A DNA stretch of 64,000 nucleotides. Source: a virus. Lineage: Duplodnaviria; Caudoviricetes. Below the pieces are notes generated by a model. That model worked only from the letters and a program-made list of their open reading frames with translations, ran no database searches and was not told the origin of the DNA. A program made the position numbers and the translations under genes. The stretch lies in IMG/VR virus record IMGVR_UViG_3300044695_004869. One strand, written 5' to 3'. Below, piece by piece: positions 1 to 62,196 of the stretch (position 1 is its first letter; every line of letters begins with the position of its first letter).

Positions 1-2684
1 TGTACTGTTATATCAAGATTAGTAAAACAATCCAAATTGGCCTCTGTTGTACCACTTGCCCCTGTTGAAGTATATGTTATACCATTAATTATAATTGCTT
101 GAAGAACTGGGGTATATTGTCCGGCCGGTAAAGGTGGCGATCCTGCACCTGTTAATGGGTGTGTAACAGTGTATGGTGTGAAACCAGCAATCAAAGGTCC
201 AAATCCACTTACAAGTTGGATATTACCTAAAGAATCGTACCAATAAATAACATATGATGTAATAGAACCACAACCACCTGTTATACTACCCACAACTAAT
301 TGACCAACCGTATTTGAACTATATGTGTCAAACCCTAACCCACATGGTGGTCCACATAAATTATTTGTGTTGTTTGGTGATAGTGTAATTGTTGGAGTTG
401 GAGTATTAGTTGGTGTTTTTGTTGGGGTTGGGCTAACAATTTGAGTATTTGTTGGGGTTGGTGTTGGTGTTATAATAATATCTGAAATAAAATTATCCAC
501 AGGACAAATGTAAGTATTACAATCAGGGCAGTCAGGGTCGAACATATTGAATCTGTCTTTTAATATTTTGAAATTGTGTTTTACTTCAGACGCATCTAAT
601 GGATCAATATACATTCTGAATTGTGAAATGCCACCTTCAAAAGTACCACCAAAATTTTGTTCTAATAATATATTAGTTCTCATTCCTGCCAATGTTGTCC
701 CACTAAGAACATTCGGTGGGAATAATTCGGGGTCTTGAATATAATCAGTGTAAGGTAAAGTACAAGATGAGAAAACTAAATTTTCTCGTAACCCTTGAGT
801 TCCCCCACCCCAAGATATATTAAAAGGTACACCAATTTGTCTTTCTTTATCAGTATCTAATGGTCTTGGTATAATTTCCTCAAAGTTTTCAATCGTAAAG
901 AAAGGTTTTCCATTTACGTAGATTTTTAATCTACCCATTCTAAACTCTAAATCATTTAACCATTTTTGGTTAAGCTTTACTAATTCTATTTGTTCAGGAT
1001 CAATACTACAATTTTCGTGAGTGTACGGAGGTTTTATTAATTTTGTGGTATCATTTACTAATGAATCCAAATATTTTATTTCTGTTATATCTCCTAACCC
1101 TCCTCTCCATTGTAGATCACAAGTATCTAACCAAGTATAACGTCTCCAAACGACATCAACCATCAACCATTTTTCAACATCAAAAAATTCATTACATTTT
1201 GTTAAACAATAATCATATATCCCATTTGGAGAGCAATATGTGTCGATTGTGTATCCTGTCATATGTGTTATACCTGTTGTAGCACAACTTCCTGTTGTAA
1301 CACAGTCACCGGTAAATCTTAATGCTTTTACACATATTCTTGGGTTTCTTGGATCCCCTGAAAATTTAACAGAAAATGCGTTAGACAATGAATCCCATAA
1401 AGGATCTTTTTCACAAGTATCTTCTATTGAGGTATACCCTGTGGTTGCACAAGTAATACAATCGATACATTCATCACACGTATCACAATCAGGACATTCA
1501 TGTTCACATACCGGTGTGGTTTCACAATAAATAGGTGTAGGTGTTGGGGTAGGTGTTGGGGTAGGACTTGGTTCACATGGTTTACACAATAATGGTACAA
1601 TTGGCATTGGTGTTGGTGTAACACCTGTTATTAATGCACATGGGTGAGTTTTACATTCCCATCCACAAGTACCGCAAGGTTCCTCACCACAATCACAACC
1701 ACAATAACGTTTTTGTTCTTTACAAACGTCACATCCATAATTAAGGTGGTAATCATGAATTCCATCAACAGATCTTGGTGGATATACAAATATACATCTA
1801 CTATTTGTTACTCCTGTATTACAACAAGCACAAGTTACTAAACAATCTGCTAAATCAGAAGTAACTCTTGTATATCCCGTGAAACATTTTGGGTGACCAT
1901 CAGCGTGATGATAAAATTTATTTTCCGCTCTCGTACCTAAATAGAAAAAAGTATTTTTATTATCGGGATAAATTTCATTAAGTGTTGTTTCTCCCGTTGA
2001 AATAATTTTGTCGTTTAAAATTCTCGGTTTCAATAACATTTCAACTGACCAACCCTTGTTGGTTCTTTCAGGTAAAACTTCATAATCATAACCAAATAAT
2101 TTGTAAAACCCTTGATAAAACCCACCATATAACTTATGAAACTTTCCAACATTTGGTTCTGTTGCACTTTCTATTTCATATAATGTAGTTTTAGAGATAC
2201 CTGAAAATCTATTATATTGCGAAGTATATCCCGTAACTTGGAACATCTTCATTCTTCTATCAAAATAAGTTCTTTGGAATTTTTCAGTTTGATTAAATAA
2301 TCCATTAGTAAATGTGATTGTTTGACCAACTAAAGATGTTACCAAACCATTGTCCATTCCGACTAAACCTATATCACAAGCACTTTGAGCACTAAAACAA
2401 GTAAGATCTAAATTATCGGGGTTATAATAGTTTTCAGAAACAACTAAATTTCTAAAATCATATTGACCATAAGTGAGTGTTAAATTTTGTCTGGTGTTTG
2501 AACTATTTAAATCATAATAAACAGGTAATCTATTACCATATGTTTGTGCAATAAGATACGGGGAAAACACAACCTCTTGGTTGTAGTCCACCTCATCAGA
2601 CGCTAAAGACATATCTGACGAATCCAACGCAAAACTTATTTTTAGTTTCGAGTACACATATTGATTAATGTTCTGTTGTGCCAT
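1..2684 (-). CDS. Large Cys-rich, Pro-Thr-repeat virion structural protein (3' end runs off the window)
   Basis: ATG at 2684 (MAQQNINQYVYSKLKISFALDSSDMSLASDEVDYNQ...), preceded by TATTTATT. The same frame reads open at the left edge. It is absent from the ORF track, consistent with no stop in the window. Contains TPTPTPT tracts and CxxC clusters. Confidence 0.75.
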   Translation of the reverse strand, partial: MAQQNINQYVYSKLKISFALDSSDMSLASDEVDYNQEVVFSPYLIAQTYGNRLPVYYDLNSSNTRQNLTLTYGQYDFRNLVVSENYYNPDNLDLTCFSAQSACDIGLVGMDNGLVTSLVGQTITFTNGLFNQTEKFQRTYFDRRMKMFQVTGYTSQYNRFSGISKTTLYEIESATEPNVGKFHKLYGGFYQGFYKLFGYDYEVLPERTNKGWSVEMLLKPRILNDKIISTGETTLNEIYPDNKNTFFYLGTRAENKFYHHADGHPKCFTGYTRVTSDLADCLVTCACCNTGVTNSRCIFVYPPRSVDGIHDYHLNYGCDVCKEQKRYCGCDCGEEPCGTCGWECKTHPCALITGVTPTPMPIVPLLCKPCEPSPTPTPTPTPTPIYCETTPVCEHECPDCDTCDECIDCITCATTGYTSIEDTCEKDPLWDSLSNAFSVKFSGDPRNPRICVKALRFTGDCVTTGSCATTGITHMTGYTIDTYCSPNGIYDYCLTKCNEFFDVEKWLMVDVVWRRYTWLDTCDLQWRGGLGDITEIKYLDSLVNDTTKLIKPPYTHENCSIDPEQIELVKLNQKWLNDLEFRMGRLKIYVNGKPFFTIENFEEIIPRPLDTDKERQIGVPFNISWGGGTQGLRENLVFSSCTLPYTDYIQDPELFPPNVLSGTTLAGMRTNILLEQNFGGTFEGGISQFRMYIDPLDASEVKHNFKILKDRFNMFDPDCPDCNTYICPVDNFISDIIITPTPTPTNTQIVSPTPTKTPTNTPTPTITLSPNNTNNLCGPPCGLGFDTYSSNTVGQLVVGSITGGCGSITSYVIYWYDSLGNIQLVSGFGPLIAGFTPYTVTHPLTGAGSPPLPAGQYTPVLQAIIINGITYTSTGASGTTEANLDCFTNLDITV

Positions 2685-30329: not shown

Positions 30330-32210
30330 TTATCTCAATTCTCTCAAGTCGAATGTTCTAACTCCATCAACTGTGATACGTCCGTAGAAACGGTTGTTAA
30401 CCATTTTCTTAGCGTATCTTGTCATAATACCTTTGATAGGTGTGAAGTTGAATGGGTTGTACATTGTAGGTGTCAATTGTAGAGGTACATACGGTGCGTA
30501 GATGTAACCTGTGTCTAACAATGATGTTCCTTTGTGTCCAATCAAAACTTGGTTTGGTGGGAAGTAAGGATCACGGTACACTTGGTAACGTCCTGCTAAA
30601 GTACCAACTCTTTCGATACCCATGTTATACTGATCTTGCTCAGGAGATGCGTTAGATACGTGGAAGTATTCTAAATCATCAAAGATTGCTGAAACCTCAG
30701 AAGATACAACGATCCAGTTAGCTCCACCTCTCAATGTAGATTTGTGGATTTGTGCTGACAATTGGTTGATTGCTGTAATCAAAGTTTGGTTCCAATCTTT
30801 TTGAGTGTAAGATGTAGTTTGAGAAATTCTTCTCCATCCGTTGTAGTCCCAACGTAAGTTCCAAGCCGCTCCTTTTCTCAAGTCACGTAAGATCTCACGG
30901 TCAATCTCTGCTGCTACTTGCTCAGATAACAATGCTGTTAACTCAGCCTCAGCGTCGATGTTATGGAATGCTGCAACGTCTTGAGCTAACTCAGGAGACC
31001 ATTGTGCTCTTAATTTTCTTTCGGTTACAGAAACAGTTACTGAATCTAAATCGAAAGAAACCTCTCCAATTTTATCTTCGAATTCCATTTCTTCATATCT
31101 TCTGAATACAGCTACGAAAGAAGTTGCAGAAGTCGCAGAGAAAATAGTAGTACCTGTGTAACCATCTAAAGATGTAGAATCACAATCAGCACATACTGGA
31201 CAAGATAAATCAACTTCTAAGTAGATACATCCATCTGCAGAACAGATATTTTTGAATGAACCACCGTTACCATCAGTTGGCCAAGTTGTAGTCACAGTGT
31301 TACCGTATTGAACGATACCTTTACCGTATTGTTGAGTAACAACTCTAAATAATAGAGGAACTGCAACACCAGCACCTGCACCTACAACATCACAAGGAGT
31401 AGTTGAAGAAGAGAATGTACTTAAATTAGTAAAGATTTTAAGATCAGAAAGGAAAGATTCTGAATCCATTTCGTTTCCATCAGGTCCGATTAATTTACCC
31501 GCTCCTGTATCAGCAAAACCACACATTTTAATAATTAATTTTCTTTGGTTACCTGCCGCAATTTGAACTCCTCCTGCCGGTACACCACCAGCAACAGTTG
31601 CGTCAACTAATGATCCACTTGACCATGCTTGAAGAGTTGTAGTTGCAGTAACTGCCGACCAACGACCTTTAGAGTAGTCAAATAATCCTGGAGGATCTAA
31701 ACCTGCCTCACCACCTTCGTAGAATAAATCGTAAAGATTTTTTCCGAATGCTCCTGCATTGTCAGGATATCCTGCTCCTGGTCCTGAGTTACCTGTACCA
31801 CCTGCTGTAGGTCCGTTAGGTGCTCCGATTGGTGCGTAGTGGTCACCTGATGCGTTTGCAGTACCACCATTATATCCTTGGATACGAGGTACAAAGTAGA
31901 ATAATTTACCGATCGGTAAGTTCATTGCTTGTACAGAAACGATATCGTTAGCCAACAATTTAGAGAAAACTCTTCTTACGATAGGGAAAACAACTGTTTC
32001 GAACGCTCCGTTAGAACCTTCAGATGTTGCTTCGTTAATCAAGAAAGAAGCTTGGTTTTCATACAACTGTGCTACGTTTTCTTTTAGGTGGCCTCTAAGA
32101 CCTTCAAGGAATCCTAATTTATCCCATTTGTTAATAGTATCTTCTTTGATAACTTTAAGGTGTTTTAAACCGATGTTACCAACAAGACCTGATTCTAATA
32201 ATGCTCCCAT
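30330..32210 (-). CDS. Major capsid protein, T4 gp23-like, with a large insertion
   Basis: PIVRRVF..L.A.DIVSVQAM..P.G, RKLRAQWSPELAQD, E..AEIDREI, GYIYAPYVPL and KGIMTRY motifs. Confidence 0.95.
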   Translation of the reverse strand: MGALLESGLVGNIGLKHLKVIKEDTINKWDKLGFLEGLRGHLKENVAQLYENQASFLINEATSEGSNGAFETVVFPIVRRVFSKLLANDIVSVQAMNLPIGKLFYFVPRIQGYNGGTANASGDHYAPIGAPNGPTAGGTGNSGPGAGYPDNAGAFGKNLYDLFYEGGEAGLDPPGLFDYSKGRWSAVTATTTLQAWSSGSLVDATVAGGVPAGGVQIAAGNQRKLIIKMCGFADTGAGKLIGPDGNEMDSESFLSDLKIFTNLSTFSSSTTPCDVVGAGAGVAVPLLFRVVTQQYGKGIVQYGNTVTTTWPTDGNGGSFKNICSADGCIYLEVDLSCPVCADCDSTSLDGYTGTTIFSATSATSFVAVFRRYEEMEFEDKIGEVSFDLDSVTVSVTERKLRAQWSPELAQDVAAFHNIDAEAELTALLSEQVAAEIDREILRDLRKGAAWNLRWDYNGWRRISQTTSYTQKDWNQTLITAINQLSAQIHKSTLRGGANWIVVSSEVSAIFDDLEYFHVSNASPEQDQYNMGIERVGTLAGRYQVYRDPYFPPNQVLIGHKGTSLLDTGYIYAPYVPLQLTPTMYNPFNFTPIKGIMTRYAKKMVNNRFYGRITVDGVRTFDLRELR

Positions 32211-50824: not shown

Positions 50825-51222
50825 GGGGGTAACTTGGAATCGACTGACATAGTTGGTTATTCGGGGCACGCAGTGAGAGGGTTCCTATCACTTTAATCTA
50901 TGGAGTCAACAATTAGACGGCAACGTTCTAGACAAAATGGCGGCAATCGGTCTTATCCGTGAAGACGCTGCGGTAGTAGCCTAACAGTTAGGAAACACCA
51001 ATCGGGTCGGTGGACATACAACCTAGGAACAGAAGTCCCTACAAAGATGTGGTTTCTATCGTAAAAGGAATAAGTGGAGGATTAGTTCTCAGTAAAACGA
51101 ACCACTTTAAAAATAAGGGAATTGTGAGATTTCGGAACATTAGATTAAATGTTGACCTAAGCGTGTAGTCCTTAGTAGTCAAGATGGACAACACGAGGGT
51201 TCGAATCCCTCTACCTCCACCA
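50825..51222 (+). ncRNA. ssrA: tmRNA
   Basis: 5' GGGGGTA pairs with 3' TACCTCC-ACCA including G3-U; 5' TCGAC motif; T-arm GAGGG-TTCGAAT-CCCTC; tag ORF at 50919-50984; convergent with smpB. Confidence 0.93.
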
Positions 51223-60112: not shown

Positions 60113-60251
60113 TAACCCCAGTGGGAATCGAACCCACCTTGTAAACTACTTGTAATGTTTGCTTAAACCTTTCGCTCCAATCCTAGTATTAAGGAGTGTT
60201 TAACCAATTTACCATCATTTACCCACTCATAGATTACTCTAATATGGGGTC
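60113..60251 (-). ncRNA. Expanded tRNA-like RNA (139 nt)
   Basis: Acceptor GACCCCA/TGGGGTT, T-arm GTGGG-TTCGATT-CCCAC, internal D-loop-like TGGTAAATTGGTTAAAC and extra hairpins. Confidence 0.6.
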
Positions 60252-60257
60252 ATATTG

Positions 60258-60327
60258 TGGACACTGTGGGAATCGAACCCATACGATCTGATTGCAAATC
60301 AGTCGACCTGCCGTCGGCATCAGGCCC
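60258..60327 (-). tRNA. Atypical tRNA-Ala(TGC)
   Basis: Loop TTTGCAA, G3-U70, bulged acceptor stem and shrunken D-arm. Confidence 0.6.
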
Positions 60328-60337
60328 ATAAAAAAAA

Positions 60338-60527
60338 ACAAATCTTCCGTGATCACCACGGGTTTAGATTTTACCGATGGTTTGTTCCCCATCACCTGTT
60401 ACGTGGCCACGTAGAGCAGGGTCCATTACAGAGTACCTTGGGACATTCAAACTCTCCGTAAAGGTTGCGATCCTATGAGAGCCAAGGTTCCTTTCATCCG
60501 CGCTAATCGGACTTCTGTAAGATTTGT
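60338..60527 (-). ncRNA. Structured ~190-nt RNA in a tRNA spacer
   Basis: 9-bp closing stem ACAAATCTT/AAGATTTGT with nested TTACAGA/TCTGTAA, CCTTGG/CCAAGG, CTCTC/GAGAG, GATGG/CCATC and CCGTG/CACGG helices. Confidence 0.6.
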
Positions 60528-60532
60528 TTTTG

Positions 60533-60605
60533 AGCGGGAGACGAGATTCGAACTCGCGACCTATAGCTTGGAAGGCTATAGCTCTACCAACTGAGCTACT
60601 CCCGC
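60533..60605 (-). tRNA. tRNA-Gly(TCC)
   Basis: ATAGC-CTTCCAA-GCTAT; U73. Confidence 0.93.
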
Positions 60606-60611
60606 TTATTG

Positions 60612-60692
60612 TACTGACGGTTGGATTCGAACCAACGTTTTAAACTTACCGCTACAGGCATAGATGATATAAGCATCCACTGGTACGTCAGC
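60612..60692 (-). ncRNA. D-armless tRNA-like RNA (possible TAT anticodon)
   Basis: Acceptor GCTGACG/CGTCAGT, hairpin GGATG-CTTATAT-CATCT, T-arm GTTGG-TTCGAAT-CCAAC. Confidence 0.6.
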
Positions 60693-60762
60693 ATTTAAGG
60701 GTGAACACGGGCCTAGCAAGCCGTCTTTCAGGAAAGGCCCTTCCACCTATTCACCCTTTTAG

Positions 60763-60955: not shown

Positions 60956-61016
60956 TGTCAAAGAACCTTTTTCTTTTGTTCCACAAAGATAAGTAGAATT
61001 TTTCAATCCGACAAAC
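60956..61016 (-). promoter_or_regulatory. Bacteroidota-type promoter plus boxA for the tRNA operon
   Basis: TTTG, 19-nt spacer, TATCTTTG (60991-60984), then GGTTCTTTGACA (60967-60956). Confidence 0.75.
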
Positions 61017-61052: not shown

Positions 61053-61083
61053 AAAAAACCCACCTCTTTTGGAGATGGGTTTC
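61053..61083 (-). terminator. Intrinsic terminator
   Basis: AAACCCATCTC-caaaa-GAGGTGGGTTTTTT. Confidence 0.8.
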
Positions 61084-61743: not shown

Positions 61744-62196
61744 TTAACGGCAGTGATGATCTGCCGCTTTAGTTGCTATTTGATTGTCGGGTTTAATGTT
61801 TGTCTTGTAACCAAGAGACATTGCCCACCCAACAACAGGTTGAACAAGTTTTGAACTGAAGTATTTTTCTTGACTATTGTAATCTAAGTCAATTTGAACT
61901 TGAACTTTTACTTTTTGGGTTAACCATTCCGCAACCTCAATAGAATAGTCCGCTTCATTCCATAATCTCGTCCACTTATCCTTAATTTTTTTCATTTTTT
62001 GTTTATGTAAGATGTAATGAACACCTCTGTTACCATATCGGTAAGCAATTACGGTAACGTATACCGTACTTCTTCTGTGGTTCTGTGAATCCGTTCCAAT
62101 ATGAACCTCAACATATGGACATTCGTTTAAAACATCCAAGGTGTGAGATACCACATCTACCGATTCGCCTTGTACCGTTCTAAATACTCTGTTCAT
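61744..62196 (-). CDS. RNase H-like protein (YkuK/DUF458 family)
   Basis: HIGTDSQ, RLWNEA..S, IDLDYN and A..AAD motifs. Confidence 0.7.
   Translation of the reverse strand: MNRVFRTVQGESVDVVSHTLDVLNECPYVEVHIGTDSQNHRRSTVYVTVIAYRYGNRGVHYILHKQKMKKIKDKWTRLWNEADYSIEVAEWLTQKVKVQVQIDLDYNSQEKYFSSKLVQPVVGWAMSLGYKTNIKPDNQIATKAADHHCR

Follow-up and report, generated by a model that had tools for sequence, protein, structure and literature searches.

A T4-like jumbo phage of lakes has, within its tRNA operon, a gene of about 190 nt that probably encodes a trans-acting structured RNA, the full-length form of freshwater-1, which would oligomerise by self-kissing loops. Its extent, strand, secondary structure, linkage to tRNAs and the self-complementarity of two of its loops, L5 and L7, emerge from the comparison of homologous sequences; we infer its expression, its processing, the oligomer with its order, and a partner.

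The window, meaning the whole stretch of 64,000 nucleotides that was analysed (IMG/VR record IMGVR_UViG_3300044695_004869), is part of a T4-like phage, with a major head protein, a T4-type portal and a terminase, and carries 17 called tRNAs, one tmRNA and a GOLLD RNA (ARAGORN, Rfam). All the tRNAs and the RNA described here lie on the minus strand. The GOLLD RNA is found at 51838-52249 (minus strand, 331 bits) and the tmRNA at 50825-51222, which Rfam assigns to the plus strand, against the orientation of its neighbours. The nearest named capsids, from Microcystis phage Mel-JY01 and the Flavobacterium phages immuto, are just 41-43% identical, while the records with the same RNA, which reach 311 kb, have capsid proteins 62-68% identical to that of the window. 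The major capsid protein (30330-32210, minus strand, 626 aa) includes about 330 middle residues absent from named phage capsids. The host is probably a member of the Bacteroidota, since none of 34 open reading frames has a Shine-Dalgarno-like word and a TTTG/TANNTTTG promoter precedes the operon (consensus and host traits from PMC6847099).

The features of the gene and its surroundings are collected in Table 1. The window copy scores 201.8 bits against the comparative model R1, with all 201 positions covered, and its GC content of 47%, against 32% for the window, agrees with the GC-rich spacer of the initial annotation.

Table 1. Coordinates of the RNA gene, its parts and its flanking elements in the window
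Feature	Position	Strand	Basis or remark
tRNA-Gly(UCC), upstream, no encoded CCA	60532..60605	-	ARAGORN, Rfam
Atypical tRNA-Ala(UGC)-like gene, downstream	60258..60327	-	18.6 bits in Rfam against a cut-off of 29; cloverleaf-like fold
Putative Bacteroidota-type promoter (TTTG, 20 nt, TATCTTTG)	60984..61015	-	Consensus from PMC6847099
Terminator-like hairpin just upstream of the promoter	61055-61083		
Full-length RNA gene (extended freshwater-1 RNA), about 190 nt, four-way junction P1/P2/P6/P9	60338..60527	-	Model R1
P1 5' strand (partner 60338-60345); sequence free, pairing kept	60520..60527	-	8/8 pairs compensatory; top-ranked in covariation test
5' arm: P5 hairpin, three-way junction joining P2, P3 and P4, conserved bulge on the 3' side	60427..60519	-	Absent from Rfam
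L3; G60503-C60502-G60501 predicted partners of bulge C60442, G60444, U60445	60501..60507	-	Predicted 3-bp loop-bulge pseudoknot
J3/4 UGAAAG, nearly invariant	60491..60496	-	U, A, A, A 100%; G 97%
Second self-complementary loop, L5 (tip G60468-C60467); window copy of the weaker UCGCAA class	60465..60471	-	Adjacent-base covariation
Conserved bulge A-U-G-n-C between P5 and P4	60442..60446	-	A, G, C invariant; n free
Rfam freshwater-1 (RF02979) portion: P6 5' strand, P7, P8, J8/6	60369..60430	-	71.8 bits
P7, invariant CUC internal loop, palindromic loop L7	60395..60420	-	UGGCCA 60404-60409; perfect 14-nt palindrome 60400-60413
P6 (60422-60425 with 60365-60368), closes second three-way junction	60365..60425	-	Not in the Rfam structure
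P9 hairpin, GUGAN loop; missing from the ~170-nt subfamily	60347..60361	-	Comparison
U tract after P1	60330..60337	-	5 or more of 8 nt are U in 82/100 homologues

Judged by its sequence, the RNA is freshwater-1 at the family level, with a catalogued model that covers one third of the gene. The match spans positions 1-62 of the 62 in the model (E 3.9e-17) and misses the Rfam gathering threshold of 72 bits by 0.2 bit, so that it surfaced in an E-value search; the same cut-off is passed by 11 of 17 homologous copies, with scores up to 86 bits. The hallmarks of the family are present, namely the UGURAUGGAC lead-in and two adjacent hairpins, the first with the CUC internal loop. The remaining 128 nt matched no Rfam family in the window copy or in the homologous loci, and neither the self-pairing loops nor the 5' two thirds have a counterpart there. 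The 5' arm may resemble cobalamin riboswitch motifs and the L11-binding junction of rRNA, a possible lead for which Rfam gave no support. The initial annotation, which recognised no family and proposed the Rfam comparison, hence needs amending for the 3' 62 nt and stands for the self-pairing loops and the rest of the gene. The freshwater-1 motif reportedly goes back to Weinberg et al. 2017. BLAST against 50,697 GenBank phage records returned no real match to the RNA. The literature search, which included the main text of that study (PMC5737381), found no mention of freshwater-1 or RF02979; within the literature so covered, the full extent, the junction architecture, the predicted pseudoknot and the two putative self-kissing loops appear to be undescribed.

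The fold consists of the four-way junction of P1, P2, P6 and P9 and two three-way junctions, P2/P3/P4 and P6/P7/P8. Across 54 homologues, 95.7% of the helix cells of the 51-pair structure are paired and 32 of the 51 pairs change on both sides; none of 500 shuffles reaches this and every slid control falls far below it. A tree-aware G-test on 100 diverse sequences, for which we wrote an R-scape-like script and anchored the alignment partly by hand, gave significant pairs in P1, P2, P3, P4, P7, P8 and P9. P6 is supported by one-sided changes, such as G-C/G-U exchanges, by an A-U change and by a switch from A-U to G-C in locus L462. All helices listed in the initial annotation are present on the minus strand (the closing helix, P2, P3, P4, P5, P8, P9 and the palindrome at 60400-60413), and its perfect 9-bp closing helix is the pairing of 60527-60519 with 60346-60338, which could be extended by A-U pairs into the U tract. 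Its conserved multibranch RNA, co-transcribed with tRNAs, is borne out by homologues, by covariation and by the tree-aware test. Folding energy by itself is not beyond chance for this copy (z -1.65 on the minus strand, -1.47 on the plus strand), the mean over 20 homologues being -2.1, and single-sequence minimum-energy folds are wrong for this RNA, the comparative structure being about 5 kcal/mol costlier. Pairings of L9 with the CUC loop, of L5 with L7 and of L3 with L5 were rejected, as they show no covariation.

In the helices, G-U pairs far exceed A-C pairs (299 against 15), which indicates that the RNA strand in tRNA sense is the one under selection. This strand specificity largely refutes a reading at the DNA level, in which terminal inverted repeats would mark a mobile element inserted at the 3' ends of tRNA genes. 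Such an element would account for the 13 different upstream tRNAs and for ends that are inverted repeats, but the end sequences vary freely with pairing kept, the RNA always lies on the tRNA strand, and five long records hold a single copy per genome; it is thus extremely improbable.

A three-pair pseudoknot, within or between molecules, is predicted between L3 (G-C-R) and the A-U-G-n-C bulge, the complementarity of which is invariant in 100 sequences. In L563-L565, L3 reads G-U and an A replaces the G of the bulge, a C-G to U-A change that surfaced after the prediction and may be a single event; the other sequences have no mismatch at that pair. The 62 columns that are at least 97% conserved cluster at the junctions, a number partly forced by the search patterns. 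Two U-N-A-A-A junction strands are nearly invariant; they recall the double T-loop binders of the tRNA elbow (T-box, RNase P S domain, L1 stalk) and may serve as a lead. J3/4 is T-loop-like by sequence, and we infer its three-dimensional fold.

A position directly 3' of tRNAs, conserved junctions and a pseudoknot would also suit a ribozyme, possibly dimeric, that either cleaves itself, like the theta ribozymes behind phage tRNAs, or processes tRNAs. This is quite unlikely, given that no Rfam ribozyme model matches, that a promoter and not a tRNA precedes five copies, and that P1 locks both ends. Conserved regions CR-I and CR-V of RNase P RNA occur in 0 of 172 sequences, with no Rfam match, and the ACAGA stretch resembling CR-II belongs to a covarying helix of this RNA. 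No self-cleaving ribozyme core was found: the GAAA of the hammerhead is present after P3, but its CUGANGA is found in just 14 of the 172 sequences and unconserved, and HDV-like and theta ribozymes have no Rfam match and a nested double pseudoknot that differs from the comparative topology. A ribozyme with a chemistry of a new kind is conceivable. Other known RNAs were rejected as well. The symmetric loop motif of SRP RNA helix 8 occurs in 0 of the 172, the multi-junction fold is not the rod with a central bubble of 6S RNA (no Rfam match), and neither ARAGORN nor Rfam calls a tRNA or a Y-RNA-like mimic inside 60338-60527. GOLLD, ROOL, OLE, manA and EGFOA models do not match the RNA (E up to 10 in the window and up to 3 in 16 homologous loci), nor do T4 RNA C and RNA D match model R1.

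Homologues were collected with four patterns from separate parts of the RNA, which converge on the same viral loci, and a metagenome scan contributed at least 120 further loci. At least 172 distinct matched sequences were counted, and they put the length of the gene at 170-190 nt. Two loose patterns gave chance matches, with one true locus among the viral ones and none among the 120 matches listed for genome contigs. Apart from those truncated where a contig ends, the copies are full length, with the exception of L054, L333, L395, L404 and L467. The copy at L054:7911-8031 (minus strand), seen once, lacks the whole 5' arm, has P2 capped by a 4-nt loop and is otherwise intact, and may be a natural minimal form or a dead copy; the other four carry insertions of 45-60 nt between P5 and the conserved bulge, in some cases with a GNRA hairpin. 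A scan with P7 only found zero isolated hairpins and yielded full-length divergent members, which include the ~170-nt subfamily without P9 and the remote members L556, L559, L569 and L570. The one at L556:6595-6754 (plus strand) is very AT-rich, adjoins no tRNA, scores 35 bits with model R1, and keeps both palindromic loops, with L8 palindromic too. In L356 there are two copies within one tRNA array (1-145 and 859-1055, plus strand), one of each subfamily.

The genomic context links the RNA to tRNAs. Among the distinct listed copies with upstream DNA, 111 of 134 (83%) start 0-11 nt past a same-strand tRNA, of 13 kinds. Another tRNA follows directly in 60 of 127 copies, whereas in about half of the homologues the 40 nt downstream are free of called tRNAs. 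In five loci (L327, L353, L412, L557 and L558) a Bacteroidota-type promoter lies 3-8 nt upstream of the model start. The covarying P1 amid 13 tRNA contexts, together with these five promoters, argues for RNA ends set by P1 and for a gene in its own right. The spacing behind tRNAs fits the release of the RNA by tRNA processing that the initial annotation proposed, which would not be required in view of the five copies with their own promoter.

An RNA between tRNA genes could also act in cis, as a signal for the tRNA transcript to be processed, stabilised or terminated, and P9 with the U tract is flagged as terminator-like; the U-rich tail in 82 of 100 homologues and the frequent lack of a called tRNA downstream point the same way. 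This is very unlikely for a structure conserved far beyond such a need, as P9 is missing from a whole subfamily, the 60 copies noted above directly precede another tRNA, and stand-alone copies have their own promoter.

Of the two flanking genes in the window, tRNA-Gly(UCC) is as the initial annotation had it. The tRNA-Ala is so only in part: its UGC loop and a G3-U70-like pair are there, while ARAGORN does not call it, its Rfam score is below the cut-off, its acceptor stem is bulged and its D arm is odd. Near-identical copies of this element follow the RNA in L001, L047 and L557. Upstream, the promoter listed in Table 1 would drive tRNA-Leu, tRNA-Met, tRNA-Gly, the RNA and what follows; its call rests on position, because the motif is not enriched window-wide (6 found, 3.2 expected). 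Several other elements were observed in the array, all on the minus strand. Two tRNA-shaped genes at 59815-59895 and 60113-60250 have an acceptor stem, a T arm and long middle arms with UUA in their loops, a triplet that would read the stop codon UAA; neither gene is called as a tRNA. In L039, L339 and L392, a gene of the first kind likewise stands in front of the RNA. A tRNA-like element at 60610-60690, with a GUA loop and sub-cut-off matches to YrlA and tmRNA, has a close copy in L001. Hairpin modules occupy tRNA spacers at 60048-60111, 59903-59968 and 60698-60757 (z about -1.7 to -2.6), and 59659-59808 folds no better than shuffles. An RNase H-like gene (PF04308) lies in the tRNA array at 61744-62196; just 9 of 140 loci have a relative of it close to the RNA.

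As judged from small numbers, the RNA appears to be an accessory gene whose presence goes together with large tRNA arrays. It is single-copy in each of five records of 234-311 kb, which hold 22-40 tRNAs. Three close relatives with near-complete genomes and capsids 79-80% identical yielded no copy and hold 3-5 tRNAs, a contrast of five genomes with three. A constant protein neighbour was sought and none found, at most 10 of 140 loci sharing any. An obligate link to GOLLD found no support, as five other carriers gave no GOLLD match in a search run without a positive control.

The most informative feature of the RNA is the palindrome at 60400-60413, which the initial annotation had listed as an extra. 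In 100 sequences, the central four bases of L7 read UGCA (76), GGCC (12), GCGC (5), UCGA (3), GUAC (1) or CGCG (1), the exceptions being two non-palindromic singletons in L327 and L350; six palindromic tetramers against two such singletons has P ~1e-5 under a uniform null. The tip pair is GC in 90, CG in 8, UA in 1 and AC in 1, and thus complementary in 99 of 100, and the next two pairs are 99% Watson-Crick. A palindrome of at least 6 nt is found in 32 of the 34 distinct L7 variants, compared with a mean of 4.1 and a maximum of 11 in shuffles.

The second such loop, L5, switches its adjacent tip bases between GC (55) and AU (44), with UC once in 100 sequences (E<0.02). With 21-25 changes on the tree, a count that recombination among phages may inflate, this is among the strongest signals of the whole alignment. 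The intermediates AGUU and AACU were absent from 114 sequences. L5 palindromes total four (AAUU, AGCU, CAUG and GGCC), of which CAUG and GGCC come from the divergent members L555 and L559. The window copy belongs to a class with about a quarter of the members that is self-complementary just at the GC tip and outer positions, and isolated L5 hexamer duplexes are weak (-0.4 to -5.1 kcal/mol). The tips of L5 and L7 are the top two of 78 variable adjacent column pairs, at 0.99 each, and nothing comparable was found in L3, L8 and L9. Adjacent bases cannot pair inside one chain, which argues for pairing of the loops between copies. Moreover, L5 and L7 vary independently of one another and of all other columns, so the contacts would be like with like.

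This signature has a structural precedent. In OLE and GOLLD, adjacent-base covariation is the sign of symmetric kissing between loops of different molecules, and it matched the cryo-EM structures at OLE L9.3 and GOLLD L21a, the half-shells of GOLLD being joined via two self-kissing loops (Kretsch et al. 2025, PMC12286853). By the same measure, L5 and L7 each show it in 99 of 100 sequences. It is therefore likely, on these sequence grounds, that the RNA forms a homo-oligomer through L7 and L5.

Palindromic loops can also arise in a monomer. Template switching perfects inverted repeats, and several L7 variants, including the window copy, are perfect long palindromes, as repair of quasi-palindromes would leave them; alternatively, a protein could read alternative loop folds. 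Such a monomeric structured RNA is unlikely. L3, L8 and L9 stand on equal or better stems without self-complementarity, most L7 variants retain arm bulges and G-U pairs while the tip stays perfect, and L5 has no single-change intermediates. A protein reading the loop would not accept six different sequences. The choice of palindrome is also unrelated to palindrome avoidance in flanking DNA (p 0.25-0.73), which leaves restriction-site avoidance unsupported as the driver of the switching.

In the oligomer favoured here, transcription would begin near 60975 and run through the three tRNA genes, cuts behind tRNA-Gly and before the Ala-like tRNA would free the RNA with its U tail, and P1 would protect it; a promoter of its own would be an alternative source. 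The RNA folds into the four-way junction, two arms of which hold three-way junctions, and the predicted L3-bulge pseudoknot would brace it. L7-L7' and L5-L5' pairing would then join copies across a two-fold axis. If both contacts lie on one axis, a dimer with two bridges would result, and with different partners a ring, cage or filament. Assemblies of so small an RNA are plausible because manA and EGFOA, of similar size, form them; RNAs under 200 nt can build cages, as in manA (bioRxiv 10.64898/2026.07.01.735769). This would leave the CUC loop and the invariant strands of the junctions free to fold or to bind a partner.

Such an assembly could act as a multivalent scaffold or decoy in the translation or tRNA economy of the infected cell, a guess based on the joint gain and loss of the gene and big tRNA arrays. 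That its role or partner has to do with translation or tRNAs, including the countering of tRNA-targeting defence, is proposed tentatively and is somewhat less probable than not. A bolder and unlikely version combines the two two-fold kisses with an intermolecular L3-bulge pseudoknot into a ring, cage or filament, with T-loop-like junctions that hold or shield phage tRNAs or soak up host nucleases that cut tRNAs in defence. If true, palindrome switching would keep apart the RNAs of phages that infect the same cell.

Structures of natural RNA-only oligomers exist for just a handful of families. Being small, the present family allows easy transcription and mutation, and it brings natural controls: the six L7 and four L5 palindromes, the subfamily without P9, the insertion variants and the one copy without the 5' arm. 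The interfaces are predicted precisely ahead of any structure. The extent given here also corrects an Rfam entry that covers one third of the gene, because of which standard annotation misses the window copy.

The closest known RNA is freshwater-1 itself, P7-P8 being matched by its 62-nt model over the full length of the latter. The gene has three times the length of the model, which lacks P1-P6, P9, both junction closures, the pseudoknot and L5, and draws L7, palindromic here, as an unpaired tetraloop. HIV-1 offers a parallel for the loops, since its dimerisation initiation site presents a palindromic hexamer, in its commonest variant GUGCAC and often with an unpaired flanking base; unlike this RNA, it is part of a genome, has one such loop and belongs to an unrelated fold. 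T4 RNA C and RNA D (rnaC, rnaD; NC_000866) share the setting, as stable RNAs of small size that are excised from the transcript of a T4-type tRNA operon, but they are shorter, and RNA C has a tRNA-type T arm that this RNA lacks.

GOLLD (RF02032) and ROOL share the location in phage tRNA islands. The GOLLD of the window is separate from this RNA, and GOLLD, ROOL and OLE have no sequence or model match to it, its size being a quarter to a third of theirs. The likeness lies in the adjacent-base covariation of the self-kissing loops OLE L9.3 and GOLLD L21a (PMC12286853), found here from sequence, and in the two symmetric kisses per chain of GOLLD, as would be the case for L7 and L5. manA (RF01745) and EGFOA (RF02955), of less than 200 nt, form 8-, 10- and 60-mers, trimers and dimers (bioRxiv 10.64898/2026.07.01.735769), and are alike in size, multi-helix fold and kissing-loop assembly and, for manA, in phage origin; the kisses of manA join different loops (L5-L7', L8-L9'), whereas those proposed here join like with like, and there is no Rfam match. 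In its putative mechanism, the RNA resembles the OLE dimer and the phage homo-oligomers GOLLD, ROOL and manA, to none of which it is related.
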